The position numbers were made by a program, and so were the translations under genes. Shown here one piece after another: positions 16,364 to 63,002 of a DNA stretch of 64,000 bases. How positions within the stretch are numbered: the first letter of the stretch is position 1; each line of letters begins with the position of its first letter. This DNA is from Candidatus Woesebacteria bacterium (GTDB taxonomy: Bacteria > Patescibacteriota > Microgenomatia > UBA12405). The notes beneath the pieces were generated by a model, which worked only from the letters and a program-made list of their open reading frames with translations, ran no database searches and was not told where the DNA came from. Where the stretch lies: assembly GCA_035402805.1 (NCBI GenBank), contig DAONDY010000002.1, forward strand, positions 149,963-213,962. The letters run 5' to 3'.

Positions 16364-19300
16364 ACTGGAAGAAAATCTTTTTATTAGCTTTGATCTTTTT
16401 TATTAGTAGTTTAGTTTCAGCCAGAGTCTTTTATGGCCGATTTAAAATAATTTTTGCAGCTCAAACAACAATAACATCAAGGTTAGATTTTGATGCAGGT
16501 ACTTTTGAAGGAACTGAAAGTCAAAGTAAGGAGGGAGATTTAAAATTAAAAGCCAGTGGAAATTGGAATCCGAGAGTATTTAAAACACCAAAAGTGACAC
16601 TAACTAATCAATCAGCTATTGCCAGTGATGGAACGGATGTTTATTTATTAGCAGGTCAAGATAGATATTTTACTAAATATATTTCCAGTGAAGATAGATG
16701 GGTAACTTTAGAGAATGCACCACATTTAGCTTATAACGGGGCAGATTTGGTCGTGTTAGGAGATTATGTTTATGCAATATATGGAAGTAATACTAAAAAT
16801 TTCAGTCGTTATTCAATAATGACTAATACATGGGAAGAGAGAGAAGATATGCCAGATTTAGTGGCAAATGGATCAACTATTGAAACTGATGGAACTTATA
16901 TTTATGCTTTAAGGGGGAATTCAACTTCTGATTTTTGGAAATATAATCCAACTACTGACAAGTGGTCTGATTTAAATACACCACCAGCAGCAATTGGCTC
17001 TGGAGCTAGTTTAGTCTATAAAGATGGTTACTTATATACACCGAGAGGAGCTTCTAACACAACTTTTTATCGATATAACATTAGTAATGGGATATGGTAC
17101 ACAATGCAAAATATCCCGGCGACTGTAGGAAGTAATCATAAATCTACAGTTTTAGGTGATTATATTTATGTAAATAGAGATACTAACACAAATAGTTTTT
17201 ATCGTTTTAATGTGGGGACTACAGCTTGGCAGACAATTGCCAATATTCCACAATTGACTCAATATGTAGGATCAGTGGCAGTGGGAGATACTGCGACTGG
17301 TTTTGTTTATGTGTTTAGAGGCAATGGTTATTATGACTTTTGGAAATATAATCCGAGAGATAATACTTTCTTGGGATTAACAGATTTACCTAATACCCCA
17401 AATACTGGCGCTGATTTACTTTATATGGATAATTACGTTTATTTTAGGAGGGGAAATAGCTCAAATTCTTTTTATAGATACAACACAGCAGTTGGTGGTA
17501 CTTGGGCAACAATGGCAAATGCTCCGGCAACTTTTGCTGATGATAATAGGGGAGTTAAAGCAGGAAATTATCTATATTATTTCAGAGGAAGTGGTGGAGC
17601 TAATACTTTTTATAGATATGATCCTAGTGTTGGAGTTGGTGGTACTTGGGCAACTATGTTGAGTACTCCGACAGCTTTGACGATTGGAGCTGGAGGAGCT
17701 TTGGCTTATCCAGGATCAGGGAATTATATTTATGCGACAAGAGGTGGAAATAATAGAACTTTTATGAGGTATACGATTGGAGTAGGAGAAACTTGGGATG
17801 ATGCAGTAGTAGCAGATTTACCTGATAATGCTGAACAGGGTTATGGATCAAGAATGACAAGTGATGGGACTAATATTTACTATATTTCAGGGAATGGAAT
17901 GGCTAATTTATATAAATATACAATAGCTGATAACATCTGGACAAGGTTGGGAACTTTACCTTTTTCACCTTATTACGGAACAGATATTAGTTATTATAAT
18001 AATAAAATTTATGTATTAGCAGGTAACTTAAAATCGGATTTTTGGGAATATTCTATTGATGATGAAAGTTGGAGATTATTACCACCAATACAAAGTTATG
18101 GGTTAACAGAGATCGGAGTTTGGAATGGTGGTTCGATTGTGGGTGATGGAAGTGGAACTTTTTATATTGAAGCGGGCAATAATAATACTAGATTTTTTAG
18201 TTATAGTGTAGGGAGTAGCAATTATCCAAGTAATGGAATATGGACAAGCGCTACAATTGATTTAAATTATGTAAAAAGTTGGTCGCCAATAGGGATAGAA
18301 TCGAGTACTTTGCCAGGGACATCTATAAATTGGGAGACAAGAACTAGTAATGATCGAATAAACTGGGAAATTTGGAAAGCAGGAGTAGGAACTAGTATAA
18401 CTTCAACTCCAAACAGATATATTCAATTGAGAATAACCTTAAATTCTGACGGGAGCCAAACTCCAACATTAAATTCGGTAGTAATAAATTATGTTGGTGA
18501 TTTAGAAAACCCAACTAATCCAAATAATATAATAGGCTTATCTCAACAGGTGTCAGGAATAGGATTGTCTAGTGGTGGTACTTATAATTATTTAGCACCT
18601 TATTTTAATTGGAGTGGAAGTACTGATGTAGATACTGGAGTGGCTGGTTATTATGTTTACTTTGGAATTGATTCAACCGCGGTTCCCGATATTAACGGGT
18701 CTTTTAGAACTAGTGCTGATTATTTAGTTAGTGATCCAATGGATCAAACAACTTATTATTTGAGATTAAAAACAGTGGATGAAGCCGGTAATAAAAGTGA
18801 AGCAATGACAGCTTTTATTTATACTTATAATGGAGTGTCTCCACCAACAATATTAAGTAAAAGTTTGACAACAGATTTTGAATTGGGGACAACTGATAGT
18901 GTAAATATTAGTGATAATCAGATTAAATTGGCATCGAAAGCTGGTTTTTGGCAACAAAATAGACTAGGACCATTGTCGGGAACTATTAGTTATGGATCGG
19001 GTTTTGCTTATTCAGCAACTAGGAACAAATTATATATCTTAAGAGGGACAAACAGTAATTCTTTTTATCAATATGACTTGACAACTAATATTGGATCAAC
19101 TTTGGCTAATGCACCAGGAACTGTATATTATGGAAGTGATTTAGTTGAAGGTCCAAGTGGTTATTTATATGCCTTGAGAGGTAATAATACTAATGGTTTT
19201 TGGAGATATGATTTGGCAGCTGGGACTTGGTCTGATGTATTGGCGGCAGATACTCCACAACCAGTTTATTATGGAGGATCTTTAGTTTTTGATGGAGATA

Positions 19301-22300: not shown

Positions 22301-23499
22301 TGGTAAAAACTAAATCGGCGACTGTTACATGGACAACCAATAGAACAGCTAGTTCATTTGTAAAATACGGAAAAAGTTCTGGTGATTATGGTGATGAAGT
22401 GGGAACTTCTGATCAATTAACGGCTCATGAAATTGATTTATCAGGATTGGATCCGGGAACAACTTATTATTATAAAGTTTTATGGACCGACGAAGATGGA
22501 AATACTGGAGAATCAGCAGAACAAACTTTTTCAACTAATGCAGCGCCACTAGTATCGGCAGTAAAAGTAAGTGATGTAAGTTTATATTCGGCTTATGTCG
22601 ACTTTACTCTTAAAAATGCAGTTAAAGCGGTGGTTCAATATGGAAAAACGACAGCTTATGGAAATAATCAGGAAATTACAACTTCTAGAGCTGAGGGAAG
22701 TTATATGTTTAAGATAGAAGAGTTGGAAGAAGGAACTGTTTATCATTTAAAGATACAAGCTTTAGATGAAGAAGGAAATATTTTTACTAGCGATGATTAT
22801 ATTTTTGAAACTTTACCAGTACCAAAGCTTTCAGATGTTAAAACCCAACAAGTTAAAGGAATGGCGACGGCAACTTTAAGATTGTTGTGGAAATCAAATA
22901 CAGCAGTGAGTTCAATAGTTACTTATTATCCAGTTGGAAGAACAGAAATGGCCAAAGATAATATTAAATTAACTTTATCAAAAAATCATGAAGTTTTATT
23001 AAAAGATTTATATGACGATACAGAATATGTATTAGTTTTTAAAGGAAGAGATTCAATGGGAAATAGTGCGGAGGGTATAACTTTGAAATTTAAAACATCA
23101 GCTGATATGAGACCACCAGTAATTTCTGATTTAAGATTAGAATCAGTTGTTGATGGAATAGGGGCTGATGCTAAAGCTCAAGTAATTGTTTATTGGAACA
23201 CTGATGAACCAGCAAGTTCGCAAGTAGAATATGGCCAAGGAACTGGCAATGATTATCCGAATAAGAGTCAAAAAGATTCTAATTTAACATTGAATCATAG
23301 TTTGACAGTTCCAGAGTTGAAACCGTCAGAGGTTTACCATTTTAGAGTAGTAACTGAGGATAAAATTGGCAATGTAAGTATGTCTTATGATAATGTAGTA
23401 ATAACCTCGAAAGAAACTAAATCAGCTTTGGATTTGGTAATTGAAAACTTATCTAAAAGTTTTGGATTTGTCAGTAATTTATCAGGAGTGGCTAAATAA
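16362..23499 (+). CDS. Giant secreted surface protein (~2379 aa): signal peptide, several Kelch-like beta-propeller repeat arrays (recurring Y.Y..RG....F.RYN....W units), interspersed FN3-like domains, and C-terminal array of purple-acid-phosphatase-N/FN3-like domains
   Basis: ORF track frame 16258-23499. Preferred start ATG 16362 giving MNWKKIFLLALIFFISSLVSA signal peptide. Dozens of ~45-aa Kelch-like repeats. FN3-like segments (ATVTWTTNRTASSFVKYGK...TTYYYKV). Confidence 0.8.
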
Positions 23500-31591: not shown

Positions 31592-31663
31592 TGTCCTCAG
31601 GGGGAATTGAACCTCCATTCCAGGTTTAGGAAACCTGTGTTCTATCCGTTAAACTATAAGGAC
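31592..31663 (-). tRNA. tRNA-Arg (anticodon CCT)
   Basis: Manual cloverleaf fold of reverse complement: acceptor GTCCTTA/TGAGGAC, anticodon stem CAGGT/ACCTG with loop TTCCTAA, TTCAATT T-loop. One A-C mismatch in T-stem. Confidence 0.7.
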
Positions 31664-31718
31664 TTATTAAAATTTCTAATTTCCAATGACAAATGTCAAA
31701 AGTTAATTAGAACGGGGT

Positions 31719-31791
31719 CGGGGATACTGGATTCGAACCAGCAACCTCAGCGTCCCGAACGCTGCACGCTAGCCAATTGCGCCAATCCCCG
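31719..31791 (-). tRNA. tRNA-Pro (anticodon CGG)
   Basis: Manual fold: acceptor CGGGGAT/ATCCCCG perfect, anticodon stem CAGCG/CGCTG with loop TTCGGGA (G37), T-loop TTCGAAT. No encoded CCA. Confidence 0.75.
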
Positions 31792-37217: not shown

Positions 37218-37240
37218 ACTTGTATTATCTCATTAAATTA

Positions 37241-37330
37241 AATTCTCGTCACAAATTTTTTATGTCTGGTGAATGTGGTCGCCCACGTTCAAGGACACAA
37301 AAAATTGTGTCTTCGAACTTAATTTATGTC
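37241..37330 (+). repeat. Intergenic repeat family A, copy A2 (inner hairpin gaatgtgg-tcgc-ccacgttc)
   Basis: Alignment by eye to A1/A3. Between divergent murB and ruvC. Confidence 0.7.
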
Positions 37331-43634: not shown

Positions 43635-43836
43635 ATTTTTTTATAAAAAAACCTCGCCGAAGTGCGAGGGTAATGTAAAACAAGATAAATTGTTTTGCCT
43701 CGGCGGGATTTATTTTTGTACCTGCTGTCTTCGGTTGATGGGTTTATTGTACTAAGAAATAGTTTAAATGTAAAGAATTAAAAAAAGAAGGTCTGGGGAA
43801 GCAATGGTTTAAATTGTTTCCCGAGACCTCGGATGT
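43635..43836 (-). promoter_or_regulatory. rplJ leader region containing GC hairpin cctcgc-acttcg-gcgagg followed by U-run 9 nt before the start codon (possible L10-responsive attenuator, or terminator of upstream gene)
   Basis: Hairpin at 43651-43670 plus second GC segment gcctcggcggg at ~43697. Interpretation by analogy with rplJ leader autoregulation. Confidence 0.35.
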
Positions 43837-50318: not shown

Positions 50319-50915
50319 TTAGAGTTCTTTAGAAACCTGTAAGAAGTCGAGTTCGACTGGAGTTTCTCGTTCGAAAATGGAAATCAAAACTCTAATTTTA
50401 CCTTTTTCTTGGTCAATAGATTCGATAGTACCAATAAAATCGGCAAATGGACCGTTGATAATTTTAACGACATCACCAATAGCAAAAGGAGTTTGAAATT
50501 TTGGTTTGTCTTCTTCTGTAGTTTGAAGAATTTGATCAACTTCCTTTTGGGAAATAGGGGATGGAGTGTTTTCAATACCAATGAAACCAGTGACTCCTTG
50601 AGTGGTACGAACAGTAACCCAAGCATCATCATCCATAACCATTTGAACTAAGACATAACCTGGAAAGGTTTTTTCTTGAGATTTAACTTTTTGACCACGA
50701 CGAATGATCATTTTACTTTGAATAGGAACGATGGCTTGGAAGATTTTATCTTCAATTCCCATAGTTTTGATTCTGGTTTTTAAAGCCTCAATAGCTTTGT
50801 ATTCATGACCGGAATAGGTATTAATGACATACCAAGCGGCATCGATACTAGGTTCAAAAGGAGAGAGTTTAAATAAAAACTCTTTTTTGTTAGTTTTTGT
50901 AGATGTTTTTGGCAT
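50319..50915 (-). CDS. nusG: Transcription antitermination factor NusG
   Basis: NGN domain (WYVINTYSGHE) and C-terminal KOW (FAIGDVVKIINGPFADFIGTI). Confidence 0.88.
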   Translation of the reverse strand: MPKTSTKTNKKEFLFKLSPFEPSIDAAWYVINTYSGHEYKAIEALKTRIKTMGIEDKIFQAIVPIQSKMIIRRGQKVKSQEKTFPGYVLVQMVMDDDAWVTVRTTQGVTGFIGIENTPSPISQKEVDQILQTTEEDKPKFQTPFAIGDVVKIINGPFADFIGTIESIDQEKGKIRVLISIFERETPVELDFLQVSKEL

Positions 50916-50917
50916 AA

Positions 50918-51196
50918 TTATTTTTTAATTGTTCCAGTGGTAGAAGCGACCGTTGGAAGAGGAATAATTGAAGGTTCGGCGGCTTGTTCAACAGTGGCCG
51001 GAGTCTGATTTTTAAAGTTACCAATTAGGGCGAAAGACTTGGTAAACAGATAATCAAAACCTCCCAAAATTAGGGAGATTACAATCGAGATTGATATTAC
51101 CACAATTGTAAGCTGAATTAAAGTATCTTTTTTAGGCCATGAGATGCTTTGAAAAACTTCTCGCACTTCTTTAAAGAATTTAATGATTTTTTGCAT
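50918..51196 (-). CDS. secE: Preprotein translocase subunit SecE
   Basis: 92 aa, single TM (IVVISISIVISLILGGFDYLF). Position upstream of nusG. Confidence 0.75.
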   Translation of the reverse strand: MQKIIKFFKEVREVFQSISWPKKDTLIQLTIVVISISIVISLILGGFDYLFTKSFALIGNFKNQTPATVEQAAEPSIIPLPTVASTTGTIKK

Positions 51197-51210
51197 GAAA
51201 GTATTATAAC

Positions 51211-51704
51211 AAAACCCCTTTGTTTCGCTTCGCTCAACATCTCCCCTTGATAAAGGGGAGAAACATAATAAGATTAAAATGTGAAATATATTACTGATAT
51301 TAAAGCTAAAACTAATAAATTAAACATAAGATATTTAGAATCTTTAAAAAAGGTGGCAAGGAATAATAGAAGTAAGCCAACTCAAGCAGAATTTATAATG
51401 TGGCAACATTTAAGAAAAAATAAATTTGGTTGTAAATTTACGAGACAAAAACCGATTAATAGATTTGTTTTGGATTTTTATTGTTCTAAATTATTGTTAT
51501 GTATAGAAATAGATGGAGAATCTCATTTAAATAGACAAAATTATGATCTAGAAAGAGATAAATTCTTAGAAAATTGTTTAGGTATTAAAACAATTAGATT
51601 TAGTAATGATGAGGTTTTGAATGATTTTTTGAAAGTAAAAGAAAAACTTCTCCCCTTTATCAAGGGGAGATGTCACAAAATGAAATGAGTGACAGAAGGG
51701 TTTT
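51211..51704 (+). mobile_element. Putative compact mobile element: DUF559 endonuclease ORF bounded by ~55-bp imperfect terminal inverted repeats (left aaaacccctttgtttcgcttcgctcaacatctccccttgataaaggggag; right ctcccctttatcaaggggagatgtcac…gtgacagaagggtttt), each containing palindromic hairpins
   Basis: Reverse-complement comparison of both ends: identical 24-nt inner block, matching aaaaccc/gggtttt tips. Right repeat supplies the last 13 codons of the ORF. Confidence 0.6.
51281..51688 (+). CDS. DUF559 (Vsr/MutH-like restriction endonuclease fold) protein, 135 aa
   Basis: …EFIMWQHLRKNKFGCKFTRQKPINRFVLDFYCSKLLLCIEIDGESH… matches DUF559 core (D…E.DG..H). GTG start. Confidence 0.65.
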   Translation: MKYITDIKAKTNKLNIRYLESLKKVARNNRSKPTQAEFIMWQHLRKNKFGCKFTRQKPINRFVLDFYCSKLLLCIEIDGESHLNRQNYDLERDKFLENCLGIKTIRFSNDEVLNDFLKVKEKLLPFIKGRCHKMK

Positions 51705-51835
51705 AAACACCGCGGAATTGTTGCAAAATTCAATTTTGATACATTTTAGTCTATTGACTCGTACTAGTGGTGGTGGATATGATGATTAACATACACTATA
51801 AATAGTGTTTTATTAATTATAATAAAAATTACAAA

Positions 51836-52336
51836 ATGCTGTGTCCATATTGTGGTTTTGATGAATCAAATGTTTTGGAAAGTCGTGAGGCAGAAGATGG
51901 AAAAGTGACGAGAAGACGAAGGGAATGTTTAAAGTGCAAAAAGAGATTTACAACTTATGAAAGAATCGGGAGCGTGGAGCTAAAAGTTATTAAAAAATCA
52001 GGGAGAGTTGAAGATTATTCTCGAGAAAAATTAGAAAAATGTATAGATAAGGCTTGTTGGAAACTGACGGATGAGGAAAAAAATAAATTAATTGATGAAA
52101 TTGAAATGAAACTTTTAAACTGGCCAAGTGTGGAAATTCCCTCGAAAGAAATTGGAATGATGGTGTTAGAAAAATTAAAAAATATTGATCCTATGGCATA
52201 TATTAGGTTTGCTACTGTTTATTTGGATATAAATGAAATAAATGACTTTAAGGATTTATTAGTTAGTTTTGAAAAATTTCGGCCAAAGGCCGATCAGCCT
52301 ATGGCTGAAATTAGCAGTTTTAAAAATAAAAAATGA
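51836..52336 (+). CDS. nrdR: Transcriptional repressor NrdR (Zn-ribbon + ATP-cone)
   Basis: MLCPYCGFDESNVLESRE…RRRRECLKCKKRFTTYERI signature. Confidence 0.9.
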   Translation: MLCPYCGFDESNVLESREAEDGKVTRRRRECLKCKKRFTTYERIGSVELKVIKKSGRVEDYSREKLEKCIDKACWKLTDEEKNKLIDEIEMKLLNWPSVEIPSKEIGMMVLEKLKNIDPMAYIRFATVYLDINEINDFKDLLVSFEKFRPKADQPMAEISSFKNKK

Positions 52337-54801
52337 CAGATATAAGCAGGCAAAACATAAATGAAAATGAATTATTAGAACCAAGTCTTTCACTTAATGC
52401 TAAATATATTGCCGAAACTAGGTATTCTAGAAAAGATGAAGATGGAAAATCTATAGAAACAGTTAAAGATATTTTTTGGCGTGTAGCAAGTAATGTGGCC
52501 AAAGGAGATGCAGTTTTTGGAGCTAATGAAGAACAGATTGATAGACAGGCCAAGTCTTTTTACCAATTAATGGCAGAACAAAAATTTCTACCAAATACTC
52601 CGTGTTTGGTTAATGCAGGAAAGACCCATCAGCAATTATCGGCTTGTTTTGTACTGCCAATAGATGATTCGATGGAATCAATTTTGGAAACCATGTCAAA
52701 TATGGCTTTGATTCATAAAAGTGGCGGTGGAACTGGTTTTTCATTTTCAAGACTTAGACCAAGCGGGGATTATATTAAAAGTAGCGGTGGAACAACTGTT
52801 GGCCCGGTAAGTTTTATGCAGGCCTACAACGATGTAACGGCTCAAATTAAACAAGGTGGAGTACGACGGGGAGCTAATATGGGAATGTTGTCAATTGATC
52901 ATCCAGATGTACTTCGATTTGCAGTGGCAAAGCTTGATGAATGGAGTTTGACTAACTTTAATATATCGTTGGCAGTGACTAATTCTTTTATGGAAAGAAT
53001 TGAAATCGATAAAAAATTTGCAGATGACGATTCTATTCCTGAAGAAGCGGTTGAAGAAATTAGAATTGCCGAGCAAAACAGAAGTGCCGACGAAAGATTA
53101 AGAGAGGTAGAGGCTGGAATTAAAAAAGTCTATGATTGGGCTAAAGCCACTAAAGAAGGTGAGGGTTATGATCTAATTAACCCAAGGACAGGTCAGTCGA
53201 CAATGAAATTAAATGCTTATAAAGTATTTAATTTGATTACCAGATTAGCTTGGCAATTTGGTGATCCGGGATTGGTTTTTATTGACAGAATGAATGAATC
53301 TAGTTCAAATCCAATACCGAGCGTAGGAAAAATTGAAGCAACTAATCCTTGTGGAGAACAGCCGCTTTTGCCTTACGATGCTTGTAATTTAGGAAGTGTT
53401 AATTTAAGTAAATTTGTCGAAGGATCGGACATAAATTGGAATGGATTGAAGGAAACAATTAAAATAGGGGTTCACTTTTTGGATAATGTGGTAGAAATTA
53501 ATGATTTTCCGGTTCAAAAAATTAAAGAAATGGTAAATAGCACTCGAAGAATTGGAGTGGGAGTGATGGGTTTTGCTGATGCTCTTTTTAAATTGGGAAT
53601 TAAATATGATTCAGAAGAAGGAATTGCTTGGGCTGAGAAAATAATGAAATTTGTAACCGAATCAGCTAAAGAGGCAACCCAAGAATTAGGAGTAACCCGA
53701 GGAGCTTTCCCATTATGGGAAAAGAGTGTTTATTTCAACACTGGTTATAGACCAAGGAATATGGCTTTAACTACCATTGCTCCAACTGGAACCATCAGCA
53801 TGTTGGCTGATACTAGTTCAGGAATCGAGCCAGTGTTTTCTTTGGGTTATCAAAAAAATACGGTTGAAGGTAAAACATTGTATATAGTCAGTCCAATTTT
53901 GGTTGAAGAGCTTAAAAAGAGAAATATTTACAGTGAAGAATTAATTGAAAAGATTGTTAAAAATGGGGGAATTTTGAAAGGAATAGAGGAAATACCAGAA
54001 GACTTAAAATCATTATTTATCACCGCTTTGGAAATTGATCCGGAATGGCATATTAGGGTTCAAGCAGCTTTCCAAAAATATACCGACAATGCGGTGTCTA
54101 AAACAATTAATTTACCAGAAGAAGCCACAGTTGATGATGTACGAAAAGCTTATTTAAAATCTTATTCATTAGGAACAAAAGGAATTACTATTTACAGGAG
54201 CGGTTCAAGATCTTTTGAGCCAATGCAAAAAGTTAAAGCTAAAGAAGGAAAAGTTGAAGAAAAAATAATTAATGTTCAACCCAAGAAAAAAGCCACTCCA
54301 ATAATGGCCAGAGGGGTTAGATTAAAGAAAAAATGTGATTTGGGAAGTGTTTATACTTCTATTTTTTATGAAGCCGGTGATGGTCCAGTGGAAGTCTTTG
54401 TTAATTTAGGTAAAAGTGGTGGTTTTATGTCAGGAGCGGCTGAAGCGACCGGTAGACTAGCCTCTTTAGCCTTAAAATATGGGGCTAGTTTAGATGAAAT
54501 TGCAGATGAAATGGTGGGAATAGCCTGCGGCCAAAAAGTGGGTTTAGGATCGGGGACAGTTCTAAGTATGTTTGACGCAGTTGGTAAATCACTTTTAGAA
54601 GTATCAAGAGGTGAACAATTAGATATTTTTGCTTGCGAAAAAGGTTCTATTGATACGAAAGCAATTGAAAGTATTAGAGTCAAACAAGCCGATTTGGAAA
54701 GCAAGGCTATTTCTTGTCCAGATTGCGGTAGTCCTTTAAGAGCTGAAGAAGGATGTTTTAAATGTACTAATGAATTTTGTGGTTATAGTAAATGTTCATA
54801 A
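52333..54801 (+). CDS. nrdJ: Class II (adenosylcobalamin-dependent) ribonucleotide reductase, monomeric NrdJ type with C-terminal Cys-rich tail
   Basis: RNR barrel motifs (NPCGEQPL, catalytic Cys/Asn/Glu context), B12-type length and C-terminal CPDCG…CFKC. Confidence 0.85.
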   Translation: MTDISRQNINENELLEPSLSLNAKYIAETRYSRKDEDGKSIETVKDIFWRVASNVAKGDAVFGANEEQIDRQAKSFYQLMAEQKFLPNTPCLVNAGKTHQQLSACFVLPIDDSMESILETMSNMALIHKSGGGTGFSFSRLRPSGDYIKSSGGTTVGPVSFMQAYNDVTAQIKQGGVRRGANMGMLSIDHPDVLRFAVAKLDEWSLTNFNISLAVTNSFMERIEIDKKFADDDSIPEEAVEEIRIAEQNRSADERLREVEAGIKKVYDWAKATKEGEGYDLINPRTGQSTMKLNAYKVFNLITRLAWQFGDPGLVFIDRMNESSSNPIPSVGKIEATNPCGEQPLLPYDACNLGSVNLSKFVEGSDINWNGLKETIKIGVHFLDNVVEINDFPVQKIKEMVNSTRRIGVGVMGFADALFKLGIKYDSEEGIAWAEKIMKFVTESAKEATQELGVTRGAFPLWEKSVYFNTGYRPRNMALTTIAPTGTISMLADTSSGIEPVFSLGYQKNTVEGKTLYIVSPILVEELKKRNIYSEELIEKIVKNGGILKGIEEIPEDLKSLFITALEIDPEWHIRVQAAFQKYTDNAVSKTINLPEEATVDDVRKAYLKSYSLGTKGITIYRSGSRSFEPMQKVKAKEGKVEEKIINVQPKKKATPIMARGVRLKKKCDLGSVYTSIFYEAGDGPVEVFVNLGKSGGFMSGAAEATGRLASLALKYGASLDEIADEMVGIACGQKVGLGSGTVLSMFDAVGKSLLEVSRGEQLDIFACEKGSIDTKAIESIRVKQADLESKAISCPDCGSPLRAEEGCFKCTNEFCGYSKCS

Positions 54802-54807
54802 ATAAAT

Positions 54808-55305
54808 ATGAGTGAAGAAAGTGACAGAGGAAGAACACAAGGAGAATGTCTTCTTGATGTTAGTAAAAATTCGCCTTTTGTTGAGGCAGTTGGTTCGATT
54901 GATAGATTTCAAGCCAGTCTAGGATTAGCTAAGGTAAAAATGACAAACACTGACGAAAAAAAGAGATTTTCTCAAATGGAGAAAGATTTATATGAAATTA
55001 TGGGTAGTCTATACATGGGTCAAAGTTGGGCTAATGGGGATAAAAAAATAGAGCAAATAGACAAAGAGATTGAATCGACAAAAAAAAGGATTAGTAACCT
55101 TGAGGGATTTTTGATTCCAGGCGAAAATGAAATTGAAGCTAGAATAAATTTATGTAGAACGGATTGCCGAGAAGCAGAAAGACGATTAGTTAGTTTAAAA
55201 ATTGATAGGGAAGAAAAAGAAAACCTGAAATTTGATCTAAATGTACTTAAATATTTTAACCGATTATCATCCTTATTAAATTTAATGTGGAGGTCGAAAT
55301 TTTAG
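54808..55305 (+). CDS. PduO-type ATP:cob(I)alamin adenosyltransferase
   Basis: DRGRTQGECLLDVSKNSPFVEAVGSIDRFQASLGLAKV and FLIPGENEIEARINLCRTDCREAERRLV match PduO-type ATR motifs. Context next to B12-dependent RNR. Confidence 0.7.
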   Translation: MSEESDRGRTQGECLLDVSKNSPFVEAVGSIDRFQASLGLAKVKMTNTDEKKRFSQMEKDLYEIMGSLYMGQSWANGDKKIEQIDKEIESTKKRISNLEGFLIPGENEIEARINLCRTDCREAERRLVSLKIDREEKENLKFDLNVLKYFNRLSSLLNLMWRSKF

Positions 55306-55401
55306 TGATAGAATAGATTTATCAAGAGGGAATCAGGTTAAAATCCTGAGCTGTGCCGCAACCGTATAGCCGGATAACTAAAACTTTCGAGCAAGAGTAA
55401 T

Positions 55402-56247
55402 ATGAATAATTTAGAAAATAAAAAGTTTTACGACATAAATAAAAATGATTTAAGTGAAGTGGCGGGGGCTTTTTTAGAAGAGGGAACAAGTGATGATTTA
55501 AGAAAAAGAATAAATATTTCTGATCTTTATCCAGAAAGTAAAATTGAAAAGGATAATTGGGAATATAACGAACACTCTGAAGAAGAAAGAGAGGCGACAA
55601 TTAATATTTTTGAACTAGGGAAAAAGGGTTATAATTTGGTTATTTGGATAAGTCCTGATGATGGGGGAAAAGTTTATAAAGAGGGAAGATTGAATATGGA
55701 ATTTCCTATTTTTGGGGAAAGAGAATGGGCAATTTATGGAAGACATATGCCATTACTTTGTGATGAAAAGGAGTCTTTTGAATTGGCAAAAAGATTATTA
55801 GACAACAATGGTTTTTCACTTAGAGAAATTAACTGCAAAGAAGATGTTAGAACTCAACCAATAGCTTTTAAAATAGAGGAAGTTGATGATTGGATAAAAA
55901 AATGCAGGGAATTAATGCCGGAGTTTTCAGAAATTTGGGATTTTGTTGAACAGGGGAAAGATGTAGAAAATAAAATAAAAATGGAAAAAGATGTGAGAAT
56001 GGCAATGAAAATGGCAGAAGGTGATAACTATTTATTTGAAAGTATTATGGCTAGAATGGGAAATGAAATTAATGCTGAGGGTGGCCATGGTAGTTCTTGG
56101 GGTGGAGTAGATAGTGATAGGGGTATGATTATTTCGGTTAATTCTAGTGGAGAAATCTCTTATCAAATGGGAAGCACAGAAGGATTAACTTTTTGTAAAA
56201 AATGTGGTTGCTGGTATTCTGGTGACAAATGTCCATTGTGTGGTTGA
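55402..56247 (+). CDS. Hypothetical 281-aa protein ending in a CxxC…CxxC zinc ribbon, embedded in the dNTP-synthesis gene block
   Basis: ORF track. C-terminal CKKCGCWYSGDKCPLCG. No recognisable enzymatic motif. Confidence 0.45.
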   Translation: MNNLENKKFYDINKNDLSEVAGAFLEEGTSDDLRKRINISDLYPESKIEKDNWEYNEHSEEEREATINIFELGKKGYNLVIWISPDDGGKVYKEGRLNMEFPIFGEREWAIYGRHMPLLCDEKESFELAKRLLDNNGFSLREINCKEDVRTQPIAFKIEEVDDWIKKCRELMPEFSEIWDFVEQGKDVENKIKMEKDVRMAMKMAEGDNYLFESIMARMGNEINAEGGHGSSWGGVDSDRGMIISVNSSGEISYQMGSTEGLTFCKKCGCWYSGDKCPLCG

Positions 56248-56361
56248 TATATTTTGATATACAAAAAGATGTCTTTTGATCTATTTATTTGACCCAGTTT
56301 GTTTAATTGATTAAAAGTTAGGAGTAGTTTAACCTGTCTTAGATTATAAATTCTATGCAAA

Positions 56362-57093
56362 ATGGCAAAGCAGGAAAAATTAAAAGTTAAATTATTGAGT
56401 TATACGGTAAATCCAGAGCAAAATATTGTGGCGGCTATTAGACAATGTTATGCGGCAATAGGAGCAAAAGAATTAAAAGAAAAAACAAATAAAGAAACGA
56501 GAGAAAGATTAATAAAACAAGTGATAGCATCTGGTCACACATCTACTTTGGAGCATGCCAGTTTTACTTTTGCTGTTGAAGGAATTAGTAGAGTGACGGA
56601 AATTCAATTAATTAGACATAGAATTGGTTGTTCTTATTCGATTCAGTCAGGTAGATATGTTAAAAGAAATGAAGCTTCTTATGTGATTCCACCGGCAATA
56701 TTAAATAGTGATAAGAATGTTTTGAAAAAAGTAAAAAAACATTTTGAAAATGCTCAAAAACTTTACAGTGAATTAATTGATTTAGGAATTAAGGCGGAAG
56801 ATGCTAGATATTGTCAACCGCAGGCATTAAAAACTAAGATGGTGGTGACAATGGATGCCAGAGCTTTACTTCATTTTCTTACTTTAAGATGTTGTCGAAG
56901 AGCTCAATGGGAAATTCAGTTATTGGCTAACGAAATGTTGAAATTGGTAAAGAAAAAGGCACCAATTTTATTTGAAAATACAGGTCCGAGCTGTGTGTCA
57001 CAAGGAATATGTTTTGAAGGAGATATGAGCTGCGGACTTTGGAAAACGATTAAAGGAGCAGAATTAAAAAAGAGGATAAAAGAAAATGAATAA
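56362..57093 (+). CDS. thyX: Flavin-dependent thymidylate synthase ThyX
   Basis: ThyX motif RHRIGCSYSIQSGRY (RHRxxxxxxS). Confidence 0.88.
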   Translation: MAKQEKLKVKLLSYTVNPEQNIVAAIRQCYAAIGAKELKEKTNKETRERLIKQVIASGHTSTLEHASFTFAVEGISRVTEIQLIRHRIGCSYSIQSGRYVKRNEASYVIPPAILNSDKNVLKKVKKHFENAQKLYSELIDLGIKAEDARYCQPQALKTKMVVTMDARALLHFLTLRCCRRAQWEIQLLANEMLKLVKKKAPILFENTGPSCVSQGICFEGDMSCGLWKTIKGAELKKRIKENE

Positions 57094-57787
57094 TAAAGGT
57101 AAATTTATTGTAATTGATGGAATTGATGGAGCTGGAAAAGGAACGCAGACAGAATTGTTAGTTGAAAGACTCAAAAAAGAAAATAGGGAAGTGGTAGTGG
57201 ATGATTATCCCCATTATGAAACTAGCTTTTGGGGAAAACATGTCGGTAGGATGTTAACTGGGGAGTTTGGAGAGCTTTTTAGTATTAATCCATATTTAGC
57301 CGTATTACCTTATATGTTAGACGAGGAAGATGGAAGTCGAAAAATAATTAGGCCGGCTTTAGAAAGTGGAAAAATAGTAATATCAAATCGATATTTTACT
57401 TCTAATGTTCATCAAATTGCTAAAAGGCCGGAGGGTGAAAGAGAAATTTATGCTAATTGGTTGTGGGAGGCTGGATATAACCAAATGGGAATTATAAAAC
57501 CAGATTTAATTATAGTTTTATTAGTGGATCCTTTGATTTGTAAAGAAAATATTTTAAAAAAGGCAGAAAGAAATTATACAAAAGGAAAGGGAATGGACCA
57601 GGCGGAAGAAAATTTTAATCACCAAATGGAATCAGCAAAAGAGTATCAAAAAATGGCAGAAAAAGAGCCAGAAAGATGGGTATTAATAGACTGTTGTAGA
57701 GATGGTAAATTATTATCAAGGGAAGAAATAAATAATATTCTTTTTGAAGAAATTAAAAAAAGGAATTTATTAGGAGAAGATCTTTAA
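57086..57787 (+). CDS. tmk: Thymidylate kinase
   Basis: P-loop FIVIDGIDGAGKGTQ, DRY-like motif. 8-nt overlap with thyX. Confidence 0.85.
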   Translation: MNNKGKFIVIDGIDGAGKGTQTELLVERLKKENREVVVDDYPHYETSFWGKHVGRMLTGEFGELFSINPYLAVLPYMLDEEDGSRKIIRPALESGKIVISNRYFTSNVHQIAKRPEGEREIYANWLWEAGYNQMGIIKPDLIIVLLVDPLICKENILKKAERNYTKGKGMDQAEENFNHQMESAKEYQKMAEKEPERWVLIDCCRDGKLLSREEINNILFEEIKKRNLLGEDL

Positions 57788-57824
57788 ATGAGAGGAACAA
57801 GGTAATTTGTTGTAAAATCACTTT

Positions 57825-58982
57825 ATGATAGATGAACAAGTTAGAGACTTAATTAAAAAAGAAGAAGAAAGACAAGAGAAATTAGTTCACTTAATTCCCA
57901 GTGAAAACTTTGCCTCTGATGAAGTTAGAATGGCGTTGGGAAGCTGTTTAACTAATAAATATGCCGAGGGTTATCCTGGCAGAAGATATTATCAGGGCAA
58001 CGAATTTATAGATCAAATCGAAAATTTGGCTATTGAGAGGGGTAAAAAGGTGTTGGGAGTGGAACATTTAAATGTTCAGCCATATTCTGGAAGTCCAGCT
58101 AATAGTGCTGTTCAAATGGCATTATTGGAACAAGGGGATAAAATTTGTGGATTGAAATTATCGGCTGGCGGACATTTAACTCATGGTCATCCAAAAATTA
58201 CTTTTTCAGGAAAATTTTTTGAAAGTGTGCAGTATGATGTGGAAGAAGATGGACGAATTGATTATGATAAGTTGGAAAAATTGGTTTTAGAAGAAAAACC
58301 GAAAATGATTATAGCCGGGACTACGGCTTATCCTTATATTTTAGATTTCAAAAGATTTGGGGAAATTGCTGATAAAGTTGGAGCTTGGTTGGTGGCGGAT
58401 ATTTCTCATATTGCTGGGCTAGTGGTTGGCGGAGTTCATCCGAGTCCAAATGAATATGTTCATGTTATTACTTCTACAACTCATAAAAGTTTAAGAGGTC
58501 CACGGGGGGCAGTGATTGGAATTACTAAAAAAGGAATGGAAAAAGATGTTGATTTGGCTAAAAAAATTGATCGAGCCGTTTTTCCAGGTTTACAAGGCGG
58601 TCCACACGAAAATCAAATAGCTGCTTTGGCGGTAGCTTTTAAAGAATGTGATACGCCAGAATTTAAGGATTATGCGGCTCAGATTGTTAAAAATGCTAAA
58701 GTTTTAGCTGAAACTTTACGAAAAAATGGGTTAAAAGTTTTTGGGACGGAAAATCATTTAATGGTGGTGGAGGTGGGTTTTGAAAAAGGCAAAGATGCGG
58801 CAGTAAAATTGGAAGAAAATGGGATTGTGGTTAATGCTAATACAATTCCTCATGATACAGCTGGTCCCTTTAGACCATCTGGAATTAGAATTGGAACTCC
58901 AGCCATGACAACCAGAGGGTGGAAAGAAAAAGAATTCGAGGAATTAGGAAATAAAATTGCAGGGATAATAAAGAATTTATAA
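57825..58982 (+). CDS. glyA: Serine hydroxymethyltransferase
   Basis: PLP-lysine motif TTHKSLRGPRGA, GGHLTHG. Confidence 0.9.
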   Translation: MIDEQVRDLIKKEEERQEKLVHLIPSENFASDEVRMALGSCLTNKYAEGYPGRRYYQGNEFIDQIENLAIERGKKVLGVEHLNVQPYSGSPANSAVQMALLEQGDKICGLKLSAGGHLTHGHPKITFSGKFFESVQYDVEEDGRIDYDKLEKLVLEEKPKMIIAGTTAYPYILDFKRFGEIADKVGAWLVADISHIAGLVVGGVHPSPNEYVHVITSTTHKSLRGPRGAVIGITKKGMEKDVDLAKKIDRAVFPGLQGGPHENQIAALAVAFKECDTPEFKDYAAQIVKNAKVLAETLRKNGLKVFGTENHLMVVEVGFEKGKDAAVKLEENGIVVNANTIPHDTAGPFRPSGIRIGTPAMTTRGWKEKEFEELGNKIAGIIKNL

Positions 58983-58987
58983 ATTTT

Positions 58988-59075
58988 AAATTCTCGTTAC
59001 AAATTTTTTATGTCTGGTGAATGTGCGGTGCACGTTCAAGGCCATAAAAAATTGCAACTTCGGATTTAAAATTAC
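58988..59075 (+). repeat. Intergenic repeat family A, copy A3 (inner hairpin gaatgtgc-ggt-gcacgttc) between convergent glyA and a small membrane-protein gene
   Basis: Alignment by eye to A1/A2. Confidence 0.7.
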
Positions 59076-59092
59076 GTCTGTGAACTCTAAGT

Positions 59093-59347
59093 TTATTTCT
59101 TATCTTTCTTGAATTTTTTGTTTAGGAAAGCAAGAATCTTGCCATTGTCGATGTCCCAGCGATTAAGGAAGAAAATGTAGATTATTTCGAAGATACCTAT
59201 GGTGTTGACGTTTAGTAAGAGGATAAACCAAATGAGCTGTCTTTTATTGGCAGATTTCCAAAGAGCAAGACCTTTCCAGACTAGAGTCCAGATTAAAAGA
59301 GGAAGATAAAACTGAGGTTGGCTTAGAAAGGAAAGAATATTATTCAT
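59093..59347 (-). CDS. Small two-TM membrane protein (84 aa)
   Basis: ORF track. Two hydrophobic helices. Confidence 0.4.
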   Translation of the reverse strand: MNNILSFLSQPQFYLPLLIWTLVWKGLALWKSANKRQLIWFILLLNVNTIGIFEIIYIFFLNRWDIDNGKILAFLNKKFKKDKK

Positions 59348-59368
59348 AATTAATTGATTATAGCAGAA

Positions 59369-61981
59369 TTATTTTTTGTTTGATCTAAATATAAAAATAA
59401 ATGCAGGAATTAAAAGGATGAAACCGAGAAATTCAAAGATTTGTGGCCAGAAGAAAAGATAAACAGTAGTTGGGTTGTTGGAGGGGATTTGCCAACCATT
59501 GGCCCAGTTATTGACTAAGGTATGGTTTTTTAAAAAGACTGGTTTAAAACCTTGAAAATAAAAGGCAATCCAACCTTTATGAAAAGATTGAGGGAGAACT
59601 AAATATTTATTGTTAGTTTGATTGAATTTTACTTTATAATAAAAAATATTTGATTTTGCAGACAAATAATTGTTATTGGGTGACTGATAATCATTAATTA
59701 GAGAAATATTATTTTGATAAGGATAAATTTCTGGATTTTTAATATCATTTATTGATAGATTTTGATTAAAACTGGGATTATCAAAAAGAACAGTTAACCC
59801 GGTGTCAAATGAGAAGTTTTCCATTTTAGGAATTAAGAACCAACTGGTTTGCCATTCGTCAGATTTTTTTAATTGGTTTTTGAAAAAATAATAGCGGTTA
59901 AGATTATCAAAAGCAGAAATGATGGGAGTTTGACCTTTAGTATTTCTAGATTCTATTTTTAATAAATAATCTTGATCAAATTTTATGTCAGGGAAGTTAA
60001 ATCCTAAAAGGTTGTGGGAAAATTTATTTTCGAAATGGAAATATAGTTGATTAGAGGTAATAACTTTGGTAGTTTTGTTTTCGGTCAGTGCTCCATGTTC
60101 TAAAGAATATATAACAGAAGATGAATCTGGTAGTTGTTTTGGATAAAAATTTGGATCGAAACTACTGATAGGATATTCTTCTTCGATATTGTTAGTGGTA
60201 TAAACTTGGCTAGGTCTAATATTTTGATAAATATAGATGGAACCAATATTTTTAACTAGTTTAAGATTGTCGATTTGATTTAATAGTTCGAATTGAGTAG
60301 AACTAAGTTTTGCATAGGTTAGTTCGTCGGTAAAATAAATATTTCGATCAAAAATTACATATTCAATTGAGTATTTATCAATAATTTTATTTAAAGCCTG
60401 AGGATTTTTTTGTTGAATAGCGGTGTTTAATTCCCAATAATATTTTTCATTTTTGAGACTCCAAACATCAAAGGCTCTATCTAAAATTGGTTGTTTTAAT
60501 CCATACCAGAGAAAACCAGAGCCTTTAACCCCCCAACGATAAGTGGTCCAACCCCAAAAAGAACCTTGGGGAAGATTCATAATTCGGGCGGTTGGAGAAA
60601 TTTGGTTAAAATATTTAATCAACTCTAAATAATCATTGGGAATATTTTGTTTAATTAGAGGAGAAAAAAATTGACCTTGGAAAACAGGAAAAATAAATTT
60701 GAATAAAGAAAAAATAAAAAATAGACTTAATATAGCTTTAGAAAAGCTAGGGGAGTATTTTATTTTTTTGAAAAAATTAAAAGAACTCTCTAATCCAAAA
60801 GCAATAAAAACAGAAAAAACAAAAGCAGTGGGGACAAAAAATTTAGTCCAAGGAGATCGAAATATTTGATTTAAAACAGGAATTTGACGAATAAAATAAT
60901 TTATTTGAGAAAAAACAGGAGTAGCGGAAAGTAAAGCAATTGAAGATAATAAGAAAATTAAAACGAGAGAAATTTTTATGGGTGATTTTTTAAGTTTAGA
61001 AATGAAATAAATTAGACCAATAATGACAAAAATGGAAACTAAATAGCCACAAATAAGGTTGTATTTATTGGAAAAGTAAACATTCCATGATGGGAAAAGA
61101 GTATCGTAATTGTTAGGGAAATCAACATAATAGTTTCTTAATATTAAGAAGTCGCCGATAGTACCACGATTTTGGTTACGGTCAAAGGTTTCTTGATTGG
61201 CCATGTAGTTGCCAAAACTTTGAATGGTGTTATTAAGATCATTTTTGAAATAATAGGCCAGTGGTAATAACCAAAAAGAATTAATAAGGATTAGATTTAT
61301 AAGAAAAACAAAATGAACTTTGAGAGTAGTTTTATTAAAATTAGAAATTAAATTGGAAATTAAAATAATTAAACAACAGATAAAATAAACTATAAAAATT
61401 GTTTGGACATAGAAACTAGGAATGGCCAGAAGATTTATTAAAATTAAATATACTAGATTTTTACGGTTTGGAGTTTTTAAATAATTCCAGAGAAGAAAAA
61501 AGAGAGCTGGAAAAAATCCCCAAAAAGTAGCAAATGGTTCAAAAGTTACCCAAAAATATTGAACGGTGCCAAAGTTAAGGAGATAAAAAAGAGAAGCAAG
61601 AAGGCTGGAATTTTTGGAAAGGTTAAAAATTTTTTTAAGGCCGATATTAAGGCTAAAAGTACCTAAAGTTAGCATTAAAAATTGCCAAAGATAACGAATT
61701 AGATTGGTTGGTAAAATAAGAGTGAAAGGCAAGATAATCAATTGTCTAATTAGTTCAGTGGCGTGTCCCATACCGCCAACCAATCCGAGACCTTGATATT
61801 CCTGCCAAACAGCCAAAAGGGATCTTTTTAGATTAAGCCAAATGTTTAATTCTGGTAAAAGATTATCCCAACCAACGAGCCAGGTGTGAGGAGAAAAATT
61901 TTGACAGAATAAAATTAAAAGCACTGAAGCTAAAATAATTTTATCGAAGTGGCTTTTAAACTTTGATATTAAAACCATCAA
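59369..61981 (-). CDS. YfhO-like polytopic membrane protein (GT-C-fold glycosyltransferase candidate): ~12 N-terminal TM helices, large extracytoplasmic domain, C-terminal TM
   Basis: 870 aa. Topology and size match YfhO family. Immediately downstream of a GT2 gene as in csbB-yfhO pairs. Confidence 0.55.
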   Translation of the reverse strand: MMVLISKFKSHFDKIILASVLLILFCQNFSPHTWLVGWDNLLPELNIWLNLKRSLLAVWQEYQGLGLVGGMGHATELIRQLIILPFTLILPTNLIRYLWQFLMLTLGTFSLNIGLKKIFNLSKNSSLLASLFYLLNFGTVQYFWVTFEPFATFWGFFPALFFLLWNYLKTPNRKNLVYLILINLLAIPSFYVQTIFIVYFICCLIILISNLISNFNKTTLKVHFVFLINLILINSFWLLPLAYYFKNDLNNTIQSFGNYMANQETFDRNQNRGTIGDFLILRNYYVDFPNNYDTLFPSWNVYFSNKYNLICGYLVSIFVIIGLIYFISKLKKSPIKISLVLIFLLSSIALLSATPVFSQINYFIRQIPVLNQIFRSPWTKFFVPTAFVFSVFIAFGLESSFNFFKKIKYSPSFSKAILSLFFIFSLFKFIFPVFQGQFFSPLIKQNIPNDYLELIKYFNQISPTARIMNLPQGSFWGWTTYRWGVKGSGFLWYGLKQPILDRAFDVWSLKNEKYYWELNTAIQQKNPQALNKIIDKYSIEYVIFDRNIYFTDELTYAKLSSTQFELLNQIDNLKLVKNIGSIYIYQNIRPSQVYTTNNIEEEYPISSFDPNFYPKQLPDSSSVIYSLEHGALTENKTTKVITSNQLYFHFENKFSHNLLGFNFPDIKFDQDYLLKIESRNTKGQTPIISAFDNLNRYYFFKNQLKKSDEWQTSWFLIPKMENFSFDTGLTVLFDNPSFNQNLSINDIKNPEIYPYQNNISLINDYQSPNNNYLSAKSNIFYYKVKFNQTNNKYLVLPQSFHKGWIAFYFQGFKPVFLKNHTLVNNWANGWQIPSNNPTTVYLFFWPQIFEFLGFILLIPAFIFIFRSNKK

Positions 61982-61986: not shown

Positions 61987-62856
61987 TTATACTTGAGCTT
62001 GAGCAAAAGTCCCAACAGTAAGACCGTTAGGTTTTTTGATGCCACGAATACGATACCAGATTTCGTTAATAAGATGGTTAGGGATTAAACTAACAACAGT
62101 AATTTGCATTAAATTTAAAGCGATAGCTTTTAAACTTGGTCTAAAACCAAGATTTAATGCAGCAAAACGGCTTTTGATGGTTAATTTAAAAGTAGCTTTG
62201 GGATTTTTATGAGAAAGGCTGCCATTTAAATGACGATAGAAAAGTAAATTGTCTTCAAGGTTGGCAATTTGACCGTGAAGCATAAATCTAAACATTAAAT
62301 TAATTTCTTCAGCCGATGATTGAATTGGTTTGTACCAGATAAAATTTTTAGGTAATTTAGAAAGATTGACCATCATTGATGGTTGTTGCATAGGAATAGC
62401 CCAAAAAATCATATCTTTAAGTTTTTCGGCTTGAGTAGGAAAATTTTTATTACCGATAATATTATTAAATTCATCAATAACAACACATTGACCACCAACA
62501 GCGACAACTTGATAATTTTTCTTTAAAAACTGAATTTGTTTTTCAAGACGATTGGCAAAAGAAATGTCATCAGCATCCATACGGGCTAAAAATTTACCAC
62601 GAGCTTTGGAAATAGCAATATTGGAAGTTAAGCTAACTCCTAAATTAATTTGATTTTTAATAGCAATAATACGAGAATCTTTTTTGGCAAATGATTTGAT
62701 TATTTTCCAAGAATCGTCGGTAGAAGCGTCGTCAACAATGATAAATTCGAAATTAGAAAAAGTCTGATTTAAAATACTTTCAATGGCTTGATCAAGATAA
62801 GGGGAAGCGTTGAAAACAGGCATGTAGATGGTGATAAGTGGTTTAATATTTTTCAT
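61987..62856 (-). CDS. Family 2 glycosyltransferase (soluble, GT-A fold)
   Basis: IYMPVFNASPYLDQAIESILNQT, DDASTDDS and DADD motifs. Confidence 0.8.
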   Translation of the reverse strand: MKNIKPLITIYMPVFNASPYLDQAIESILNQTFSNFEFIIVDDASTDDSWKIIKSFAKKDSRIIAIKNQINLGVSLTSNIAISKARGKFLARMDADDISFANRLEKQIQFLKKNYQVVAVGGQCVVIDEFNNIIGNKNFPTQAEKLKDMIFWAIPMQQPSMMVNLSKLPKNFIWYKPIQSSAEEINLMFRFMLHGQIANLEDNLLFYRHLNGSLSHKNPKATFKLTIKSRFAALNLGFRPSLKAIALNLMQITVVSLIPNHLINEIWYRIRGIKKPNGLTVGTFAQAQV

Positions 62857-63002
62857 TAGTTTTGTTTTTTCCAGTTTCGTCCTTTTGGACTCATCAGTAT
62901 CGACAATATCGATAGACTGGAGTGAGCTGAAAAAATAGAGAAGTAATTTAAAAGCAAAAGTGCTTCAAACTATTCATATTCTTTCAGCTCATCAGCCGTG
63001 AT

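Follow-up and report, generated by a model that had tools for sequence, protein, structure and literature searches.

A predicted cobalamin riboswitch and NrdR operator in a conserved deoxynucleotide-supply neighbourhood of Candidatus Woesebacteria

Bacteria of the candidate phyla radiation (CPR, or Patescibacteria) are tiny, largely uncultured symbionts that are unable to make nucleotides or vitamin B12. Here we analyse a gene cluster from one such organism, carried on the + strand of a 64,000-nucleotide stretch (the window) of the Candidatus Woesebacteria contig DAONDY010000002.1. The cluster starts with nrdR, encoding the NrdR repressor, nrdJ, encoding a class II ribonucleotide reductase (RNR), and a gene for a PduO-type adenosyltransferase (ATR), here called pduO; it continues with a gene for a protein of an orphan family, denoted X, and ends with thyX, tmk and glyA. 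Microgenomates-type members of the CPR (Woesebacteria and Shapirobacteria) conserve the locus as a neighbourhood for deoxynucleotide supply, and we consider it probable that it is served by two sensors, a NrdR operator in front and a cobalamin riboswitch that gates X. A cell so equipped would monitor dATP/ATP, through NrdR, and cobalamin, through the riboswitch, at one locus. The components are of known kinds (NrdR operator, class II RNR, PduO-type ATR, class-II cobalamin riboswitch), and, to the extent that the literature could be searched, their combination is new; we found no report there of an nrdJ-pduO-riboswitch arrangement or of cobalamin riboswitches in CPR/Patescibacteria. What appears new in the combination is a riboswitch that follows pduO and is predicted to control an orphan family which, in CPR, is strictly tied to nrdJ-pduO. 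The locus also gives insight into the coupling of DNA synthesis to an external vitamin in minimal symbionts.

A predicted cobalamin riboswitch between pduO and X

The 96-nt spacer between pduO and the gene for X (55402-56247, +) resembles the core of a B12 aptamer (GGGAA...GGTTAAAATCC...GCCGCAACCGTA...AGCCGG). The element was detected by reading this spacer and then re-scanning it against Rfam, where it matches RF01689, the adenosylcobalamin (AdoCbl)-II or class II type, at 55315-55385 (+); a whole-window Rfam scan at the gathering threshold had missed it because its score lies just below 36.5 bits. A preliminary description of the cluster, made by a model from the letters and their open reading frames (ORFs), had been right in placing an unknown Zn-ribbon protein after PduO, but had overlooked the riboswitch in the gap before it. 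The predicted aptamer comprises helices P3 (55327-28/55378-79), P4 (55333-37/55345-49), P5 (55352-54/55358-60) and P6 (55362-64/55371-73), all on the + strand, with the sequence GCC in loop L5 (55355-55357, +). Orthologous spacers from related loci (given L numbers here) score above the RF01689 gathering score (L004, 44.5 bits; L048, 52.4; L050, 43.3), and the L019 orthologue, which has an insertion in P6, passes the classical Cobalamin model RF00174 (33.3 vs 31.5).

A covariance model, R1, was built from 18 sequences of this riboswitch family. In 39 of 42 sources it gave a single match per locus, which in each case lies on the strand of X and ends at the X start codon; it also recovered loci outside its seed, including the distant L048, L050 and L051. 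Of the three misses, two are contigs that end at X and one, L052, has the core motif in a longer leader. In the 18-sequence alignment, 90.7% of the cells at paired positions are paired, versus 32-46% with slid partners, and the covariation score is 0.369 vs 0.147±0.018, with none of 500 shuffles reaching 0.369. Extension to 35 distinct sequences leaves 88.8% paired, with compensatory double changes in 12 of 18 pairs and a score of 0.414 vs 0.160. Helices P4, P5 and P6 are 90-100% paired and show compensatory changes (AU/UA/CG/GC; AU<->UA; GC<->CG); P3 is weaker (71-73%).

Downstream of the aptamer, a regulatory hairpin, P13 (ACUUU-CGAGCA-AGAGU; 55383-55398, +), is followed by a 3-nt spacer to the AUG of X, so that the platform extends to 55401. 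Among the orthologues, P13 sits 3-5 nt 5' of the AUG or contains it; in loci of the L001/L039 type, which have the UUCA/UGAA variants of the stem, the AUG lies within the P13 3' arm. The stem pairs covary (CG/UA, UA/CG, UA/AU), and the stem itself varies between ACUUU/AAAGU, CUUA/UAAG and UUCA/UGAA. The P13 loop, G(A)GC, is nearly invariant and complementary to L5 GCC with one unpaired base, and the two pair in 18/18 sequences (one with a G-U pair); RNAalifold predicts this long-range L5:L13 pairing unprompted. In characterized cobalamin riboswitches, the kissing loop involves an L13 presented by a stem-loop, always with at least one unpaired nucleotide, and its ligand-dependent docking represses translation (PMC5028336). 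As the L5-L13 architecture is the same here, we infer that the riboswitch acts as a translational OFF switch on X. On binding of cobalamin to the four-way-junction aptamer, L5 (GCC) would kiss the P13 loop (CG-A-GC-A); the kissing would stabilize P13, whose 3' arm abuts or contains the X start codon, and translation of X would be blocked.

The element shares with RF01689 AdoCbl-II or 'AdoCbl-variant' riboswitches, such as env8HyCbl, a four-way junction of P3-P6 that lacks a large peripheral P6 extension. Also shared are the kissing loop between L5 and L13, in which a purine of L13 stays unpaired, and the regulatory stem-loop by the start codon, to which a short linker leads. The translational OFF design likewise matches class-II riboswitches (PMC5028336), and for the element here it is predicted from sequence. 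Unlike those riboswitches, which lie in 5' leaders of genes for transport or biosynthesis, it lies within a cluster, after pduO; occlusion would affect the 3' arm of P13 or the AUG itself rather than a ribosome-binding site within L13; its target is an unannotated protein family; and orthologues in sister genomes that carry P6 or P13 insertions score as RF00174.

Several points weigh against the riboswitch and two-sensor interpretation. Ligand binding and the direction of regulation rest on inference from sequence, and the kissing-loop bases are invariant, which gives complementarity but no covariation support. A -10-like TAAAAT occurs at the pduO stop codon in many loci (window version TGATAGAAT, 55306-55314), and X could possibly have its own promoter and then escape NrdR control; no conserved -35 accompanies this TAAAAT element across the loci. 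Single-sequence minimum-free-energy folding of the spacer gives the wrong fold and is uninformative (z = -1.12). The window aptamer scores 33.3 bits on RF01689, below the gathering score of 36.5 (E 2.6e-6 for 301 nt, 7.2e-5 for 8.4 kb), and its P3 has only 2 bp. The low score and the shrunken P3, together with one mismatch in P1, are also what a decayed, non-functional relic might display. We hold a relic to be very improbable: the core invariant nucleotides, P4-P6, L5 and the P13 hairpin are all intact, P3 carries AG/CU in place of GG/CC, a compensatory change, and R1 gives the window riboswitch 87.7 bits, mid-range among the orthologues.

Riboswitch architecture varies among relatives. The orthologues in L014 (586-709), L019 (4000-4126), L007 (6818-6967) and L052 (~500-740) differ from the window element at 55315-55401; some orthologues carry a P6 insertion of ~34-100 nt and then score as RF00174, and others have extra hairpins within P13 or a hairpin between aptamer and P13. 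Riboswitches of close relatives may thus differ in corrinoid selectivity, and orthologous elements that toggle between short class-II and P6-extended forms would be useful for the study of how ligand selectivity evolves.

A tandem predicted NrdR operator overlaps the nrdR promoter

The first gene of the cluster, nrdR (51836-52336, +), encodes a 166-aa repressor with a Zn-ribbon and an ATP-cone (TIGR00244, 151 bits against a cut-off of 124.65; PF22811, Zn_ribbon_NrdR; PF03477). Upstream lies a sigma-70-type promoter (51754-51783, +) with a -35 hexamer TTGACT (51754-51759), an 18-nt spacer and a -10 hexamer TATGAT (51778-51783); it is the top-scoring promoter-like site in 50900-59500 (10/12). 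A canonical tandem predicted NrdR operator overlaps this promoter. By the published definition, an NrdR site is a pair of partially palindromic 16-bp boxes with a linker of 15-16 bp between them and with conserved C4, A6, A8, T9, T11 and G13; the assays of the same paper use the Streptomyces coelicolor nrdRJ promoter (PMC13584703). In the window, box 1 (GTACTAGTGGTGGTGG; 51761-51776, +; family consensus ACACTAAGGGTAGTAG) lies between the -35 and -10 hexamers and keeps four of the six conserved positions (C4, A6, T11, G13), with TG at its centre versus GG in the family consensus. Box 2 (ACACTATAAATAGTGT; 51793-51808, +), just 3' of the -10 and across a 16-bp linker from box 1, keeps five of the six in a middle-AA variant. 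It has one mismatch to the NrdR-box consensus ACACWATATATWGTGT and is the sole such site in the 64 kb, with a match in 0 of 100 shuffles. C4, A6, T11 and G13 are thus present in both boxes, C4 and G13 being the positions reported as critical. Across the nrdR upstream regions of 18 distinct related loci, the alignment is gap-free, with the order -35, box 1, -10, box 2 and the box starts 32 bp apart.

NrdR commonly regulates transcription of its own gene (PMC9110341), and nrdR-nrdJ-pduO would form an autoregulated unit, presumably co-transcribed from the TTGACT/TATGAT promoter, which NrdR, via its ATP-cone, would close at high dATP. The preliminary description had expected NrdR boxes upstream of nrdR, where both were found, and also upstream of nrdJ, where there is no room for them: the nrdJ start (52333) lies inside the nrdR stop (ATGA), a 4-nt overlap that rules out a separate nrdJ operator and leaves a single one for both genes. 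No further NrdR box was found elsewhere in the island. A NrdR-like match with two mismatches at 37295 was rejected, as it falls inside an unrelated ~85-nt repeat that is also present after glyA.

The nrdRJ locus of S. coelicolor is organized similarly, with nrdR directly 5' of a class II nrdJ, presumably co-transcribed, and a two-box operator in the promoter; its box 2 has the middle AA also seen in box 2 of the window (PMC13584703). The window differs in that box 1 is without the central AT, in that the host is a reduced CPR genome, and in that the operon goes on into a PduO-type ATR and then a riboswitch-gated gene.

The enzymes of the core unit

All seven ORFs of the preliminary description are present on the + strand where it had placed them, and hidden Markov models support its names for six of them, five enzymes and the regulator. 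NrdJ (52333-54801, +; 822 aa) scores 670.8 bits on the class II RNR model TIGR02504 (cut-off 399.95) and 953.8 on NF006417, with matches to PF02867, PF00317 and PF12637. Its translation contains a TSCPD domain, the motifs NPCGE and SACFV, and a Cys-rich C-terminal Zn finger (CPDC...CFKC...CGYSKCS). As a class II RNR, it is predicted to depend on AdoCbl. The PduO-type ATP:cob(I)alamin ATR (54808-55305, +) is a divergent protein of 165 aa. Its assignment, on which the preliminary description had staked its account beforehand, is supported by Pfam (PF01923, 106.4 bits, cut-off 24) and by homology in the Protein Data Bank (PDB) to PH0671, ST2180 and TA0546 (E ~1e-13), plus human MMAB and Lactobacillus reuteri PduO; on TIGR00636 it reaches 95 bits, under the cut-off of 108.45. 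The motifs that we take to mark the PduO family, as in LrPduO and MMAB, are an N-terminal GDxGxT ATP loop, F-x-hPGG, RxxxRRAER and YLNRLSD. Aligned to PH0671 and ST2180, the window protein has SDRGRT (G->S), FLIPGEN (GG->EN), CRTDCREAERR and YFNRLSS at these sites. The only visible deoxynucleotide route here, the locus suggests, runs through an AdoCbl-dependent RNR with its own ATR.

Divergence is much faster in PduO than in the neighbouring proteins: identity to most orthologues (L001-L051) is 29-38% for PduO, compared with 65-84% for NrdJ and 40-75% for X, the exceptions for PduO being L010 and L033 at 60-64%. Such a rate suggests that constraint on PduO is relaxed or that a PduO of another lineage has taken its place.

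Conservation of the nrdR-nrdJ-pduO-X unit

Because the arrangement recurs in about 45 related loci, it is not a matter of chance. The order nrdR-nrdJ-pduO-[riboswitch]-X is invariant, from 75% down to ~25% identity in X, wherever the contig is long enough, and in relatives the nrdR-X unit usually adjoins secE-nusG-rplKA. The genes further downstream vary. glyA is nearly always within a few kb, and the others are drawn from thyX or thyA+folA, tmk, tk, dcd, prs and pyrF; in many loci, SIMPL and opposite-strand Band_7 genes are inserted between the core and the thymidylate genes. As the downstream genes are variable and the first four are ordered invariantly, the conserved unit consists of these four. 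The cluster named in the preliminary description is kept in relatives for nrdR-nrdJ-pduO-X, but the thymidylate genes are only loosely linked to it.

In the window, thyX (56362-57093, +) encodes a flavin-dependent thymidylate synthase (TIGR02170, 199 bits, cut-off 87.9; PF02511), tmk (57086-57787, +) a dTMP kinase (PF02223, 74.9 bits, cut-off 27; TIGR00041, 73.8 bits, under the cut-off of 83.25) and glyA (57825-58982, +) a serine hydroxymethyltransferase (PF00464, 487.7 bits; NF000586, 512.4 bits, cut-off 335). Their contiguity is one arrangement among several, and they are loosely linked rather than a fixed part of an operon; thyX-tmk-glyA would act as a neighbour that supplies dTTP.

The preliminary description had proposed a single seven-gene operon under NrdR alone, in which the 96-nt gap is an ordinary spacer. 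The genes do share a strand and stand close together, with successive spacings from nrdR to glyA of -4 (an overlap), 6, 96, 114, -8 (an overlap) and 37 nt. They are preceded by a genuine NrdR operator, and neither a + strand terminator-like site nor a strong internal promoter was seen in the cluster; transcription may read through into thyX. We nevertheless judge the NrdR-only operon quite improbable. Its 96-nt spacer is a conserved, covarying cobalamin riboswitch, the island holds no NrdR box besides the tandem, and in relatives thyX, tmk and glyA are split off by variable, partly opposite-strand genes or replaced by thyA-folA or tk, so that NrdR control of all seven genes is not a conserved design. 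To call the island complete was also an overstatement: ndk, dcd/dut, a thioredoxin system and a cobalamin transporter are absent from it. A Pfam scan of the window outside the island, limited to ORFs of 120 aa or more, found none of these four functions either; it left aside three ORFs of the ribosomal-protein region and covered the first 1000 aa of a 2413-aa ORF.

Protein X and its possible role

Protein X, of 281 aa, belongs to an orphan family and ends in a CxxC-x8-CPxC zinc ribbon. It has no match in Pfam, NCBIfam or PHROG. A tblastn search of phage and plasmid collections gave no match. The nearest public protein, 100% identical, is annotated as hypothetical in a Candidatus Woesebacteria metagenome-assembled genome (MAG), and all 48 close homologues come from CPR metagenomes or MAGs. 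An exhaustive profile search yields 159 family representatives at 50% clustering, all of ~270-400 aa; no fused domains were found in the long members. A pattern scan of 185,579 species genomes returned four loci, a lower bound, as it recovers only relatives that keep the peptide GxN[LFM][VI][IV]WISP.

The AlphaFold2 model of X (predicted local distance difference test 86.8; predicted template-modelling score 0.79) shows an alpha/beta plus helical body with the zinc ribbon at the C terminus. Foldseek found no neighbour for it in the PDB or BFVD, and known-domain matches, whether from PDB sequence profiles or from Pfam on 44 distant members, are confined to the ribbon; as modelled, the family fold is novel-looking. 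Neither a signal peptide nor a transmembrane segment is apparent in the translation. Family-wide invariants are E26, E62, W82, S84, P85, Y92, R96, R150, W179, E213, G230 and the four Cys residues. Position 229 falls in a loop that is rich in Gly and modelled with low confidence; of 179 members, 92 have His there and 67 have Cys, an alternation that suggests a metal or cobalt ligand. A weak match resembling the cathepsin-B active site (GSCGSSW, E 0.35) was rejected as insignificant and incompatible with the fold.

Under both sensors, X would be made only when deoxynucleotides are wanted but cobalamin is scarce, and it is under B12 scarcity that X most likely acts. Three roles were considered. 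We favour, tentatively and with low confidence, a cobalamin-handling factor (capture, processing, hand-off) for PduO and NrdJ, because X always adjoins pduO, follows a B12 riboswitch, and has the His/Cys site as well as invariant aromatic and Arg residues of a kind that would fit a corrinoid pocket; this is the weakest step of our proposal. X would capture or process scarce imported cobalamin in the cytoplasm and pass it to PduO and NrdJ, binding it through the axial His/Cys 229 together with aromatic and Arg residues, with the zinc ribbon in a structural part. The eukaryotic and bacterial cobalamin trafficking proteins CblC/MMACHC, CblD/MMADHC and BtuM provide a functional analogy only: X is a small soluble protein genomically coupled to a PduO-type ATR and an AdoCbl enzyme, and these proteins act upstream of the PduO-type ATR (MMAB). 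X has no sequence or fold similarity to them and adds a zinc ribbon, and membership is not claimed. Cobalamin is Cys-ligated in BtuM and CblD, which the candidate Cys/His axial ligand of X recalls.

Set against a handling role are the following. X shows no similarity to cobalamin-binding or trafficking families (B12-binding Rossmann domain, CblC, CblD, BtuF, BtuM), no cobalamin transporter was found among the window ORFs scanned against Pfam, and repression by cobalamin is less readily expected of a handling enzyme than of a transporter or a B12-independent isozyme.

In a second role, X would provide a B12-independent bypass for deoxynucleotide supply, for example as a novel deoxynucleoside or deoxynucleotide salvage enzyme, and be switched off once cobalamin makes NrdJ functional. 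Riboswitch repression of B12-independent isozymes is reportedly an established logic, and the OFF-type architecture before X fits a bypass at least as well as it fits cobalamin handling. X resembles the known B12-repressed isozymes metE, nrdAB and nrdDG in this OFF logic and in having the riboswitch before the gene in a genome with a B12-requiring alternative (NrdJ); unlike them, it is neither an RNR nor a methionine synthase by the tests run, and it is encoded beside the B12-dependent enzyme rather than elsewhere. The neighbourhood in relatives is rich in nucleotide-salvage and pyrimidine genes (tk, dcd, prs, pyrF, tmk), and the invariant Glu, Ser, Tyr and Arg of X resemble an active site. 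Yet X lacks a P-loop or any other nucleotide-binding signature and resembles no kinase, transferase or RNR; it is tied to pduO, not to the salvage genes, whose presence varies; and the His/Cys alternation favours a metal or cobalt ligand over a catalytic base. A salvage bypass, the main rival, seems rather unlikely to us.

The ribbon itself invites a third role. PduO-type enzymes require an external reductant, and the CxxC...CPxC motif might bind iron, in the manner of a short rubredoxin or rubrerythrin, and make X a redox or maturation accessory that reduces cob(II)alamin on PduO or the C-terminal cysteines of NrdJ, with feedback by the adenosylated end product. The CPxCG knuckle motif, weak rubredoxin-like Pfam matches (RUBY_RBDX in 3 members, HypA in 10) and the tight pduO-X adjacency agree with such a function. 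It is nonetheless improbable, since the 8-residue ribbon spacing is that of structural zinc ribbons, the best matches being Zn_ribbon families and L32/Nop10, and X contains no flavin or NAD(P)H motif. Moreover, a reductase would be needed with B12 present, not absent, and pduO itself lies upstream of the riboswitch.

The riboswitch ties the orphan X family to B12 metabolism and makes it a directly testable candidate for a missing bacterial cobalamin-handling step. X might even found a new class of cobalamin-trafficking protein, a cytoplasmic, riboswitch-gated chaperone or processor induced at low B12, whose fold would be without precedent and whose axial cobalt ligand would be His or Cys, and which would channel scavenged corrinoid to PduO and then to the class II RNR; we regard this as less likely than not. 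If it were true, DNA synthesis in these ultra-small, B12-auxotrophic CPR bacteria would depend directly on B12 derived from the host or community.

Other features of the window

The other genes of the window fit a CPR genome and include secE-nusG-rplKA, peptidoglycan genes, comEA/comEC and PPDK. Between secE and the nrdR promoter lies an ORF (51281-51688, +) with a DUF559 (Vsr-like endonuclease) domain, flanked at ~51236-51262 and 51649-51670 by two copies of a palindromic hairpin, TCTCCCCTT-n-AAGGGGAGA. Relatives have other genes in this position, which gives the ORF the look of a small insertion of mobile or selfish nature.

The ~85-nt intergenic repeat occurs in two copies, at 37240-37325 (+) between murB and ruvC and at 58983-59070 (+) directly after the glyA stop. 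The copies are 83% identical, with an exact common 22-mer (TTTTTTATGTCTGGTGAATGTG), and contain a 9-bp hairpin in which a G-C pair of one is compensated by C-G in the other. The element has no Rfam match; a small RNA, a terminator-like element and a repeat are all conceivable.

A type III hammerhead ribozyme was identified at 62869-62922 (-) (RF00008, 49.2 bits vs a gathering score of 48.5), with the sequence CCAGUC, helix I UAUCGA-UAUU-GUCGAUA, and CUGAUGAG-UCC-AAAA-GGA-CGAAAC-UGG. It is placed between two genes of the same strand, 12 nt 5' of the start of one that encodes a family-2 glycosyltransferase (61987-62856, -), and could process a polycistronic mRNA. A ribosomal protein L10 leader (43637-43752, -; RF00557, 52.2 bits, gathering 44) precedes rplJ-rplL, and two tRNAs are located at 31592-31791 (-).

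GC content is ~30-39%. All 2-kb bins of the window have a strongly positive GC skew (0.09-0.48), whatever the strand of the genes. The 2413-aa ORF (16258-23499, +) contains beta-propeller repeats of Kelch/NanM-like type within its first 1000 aa and may represent a giant surface protein typical of CPR episymbionts; genes for an ABC ATPase and a MacB/FtsX-type permease come after it.

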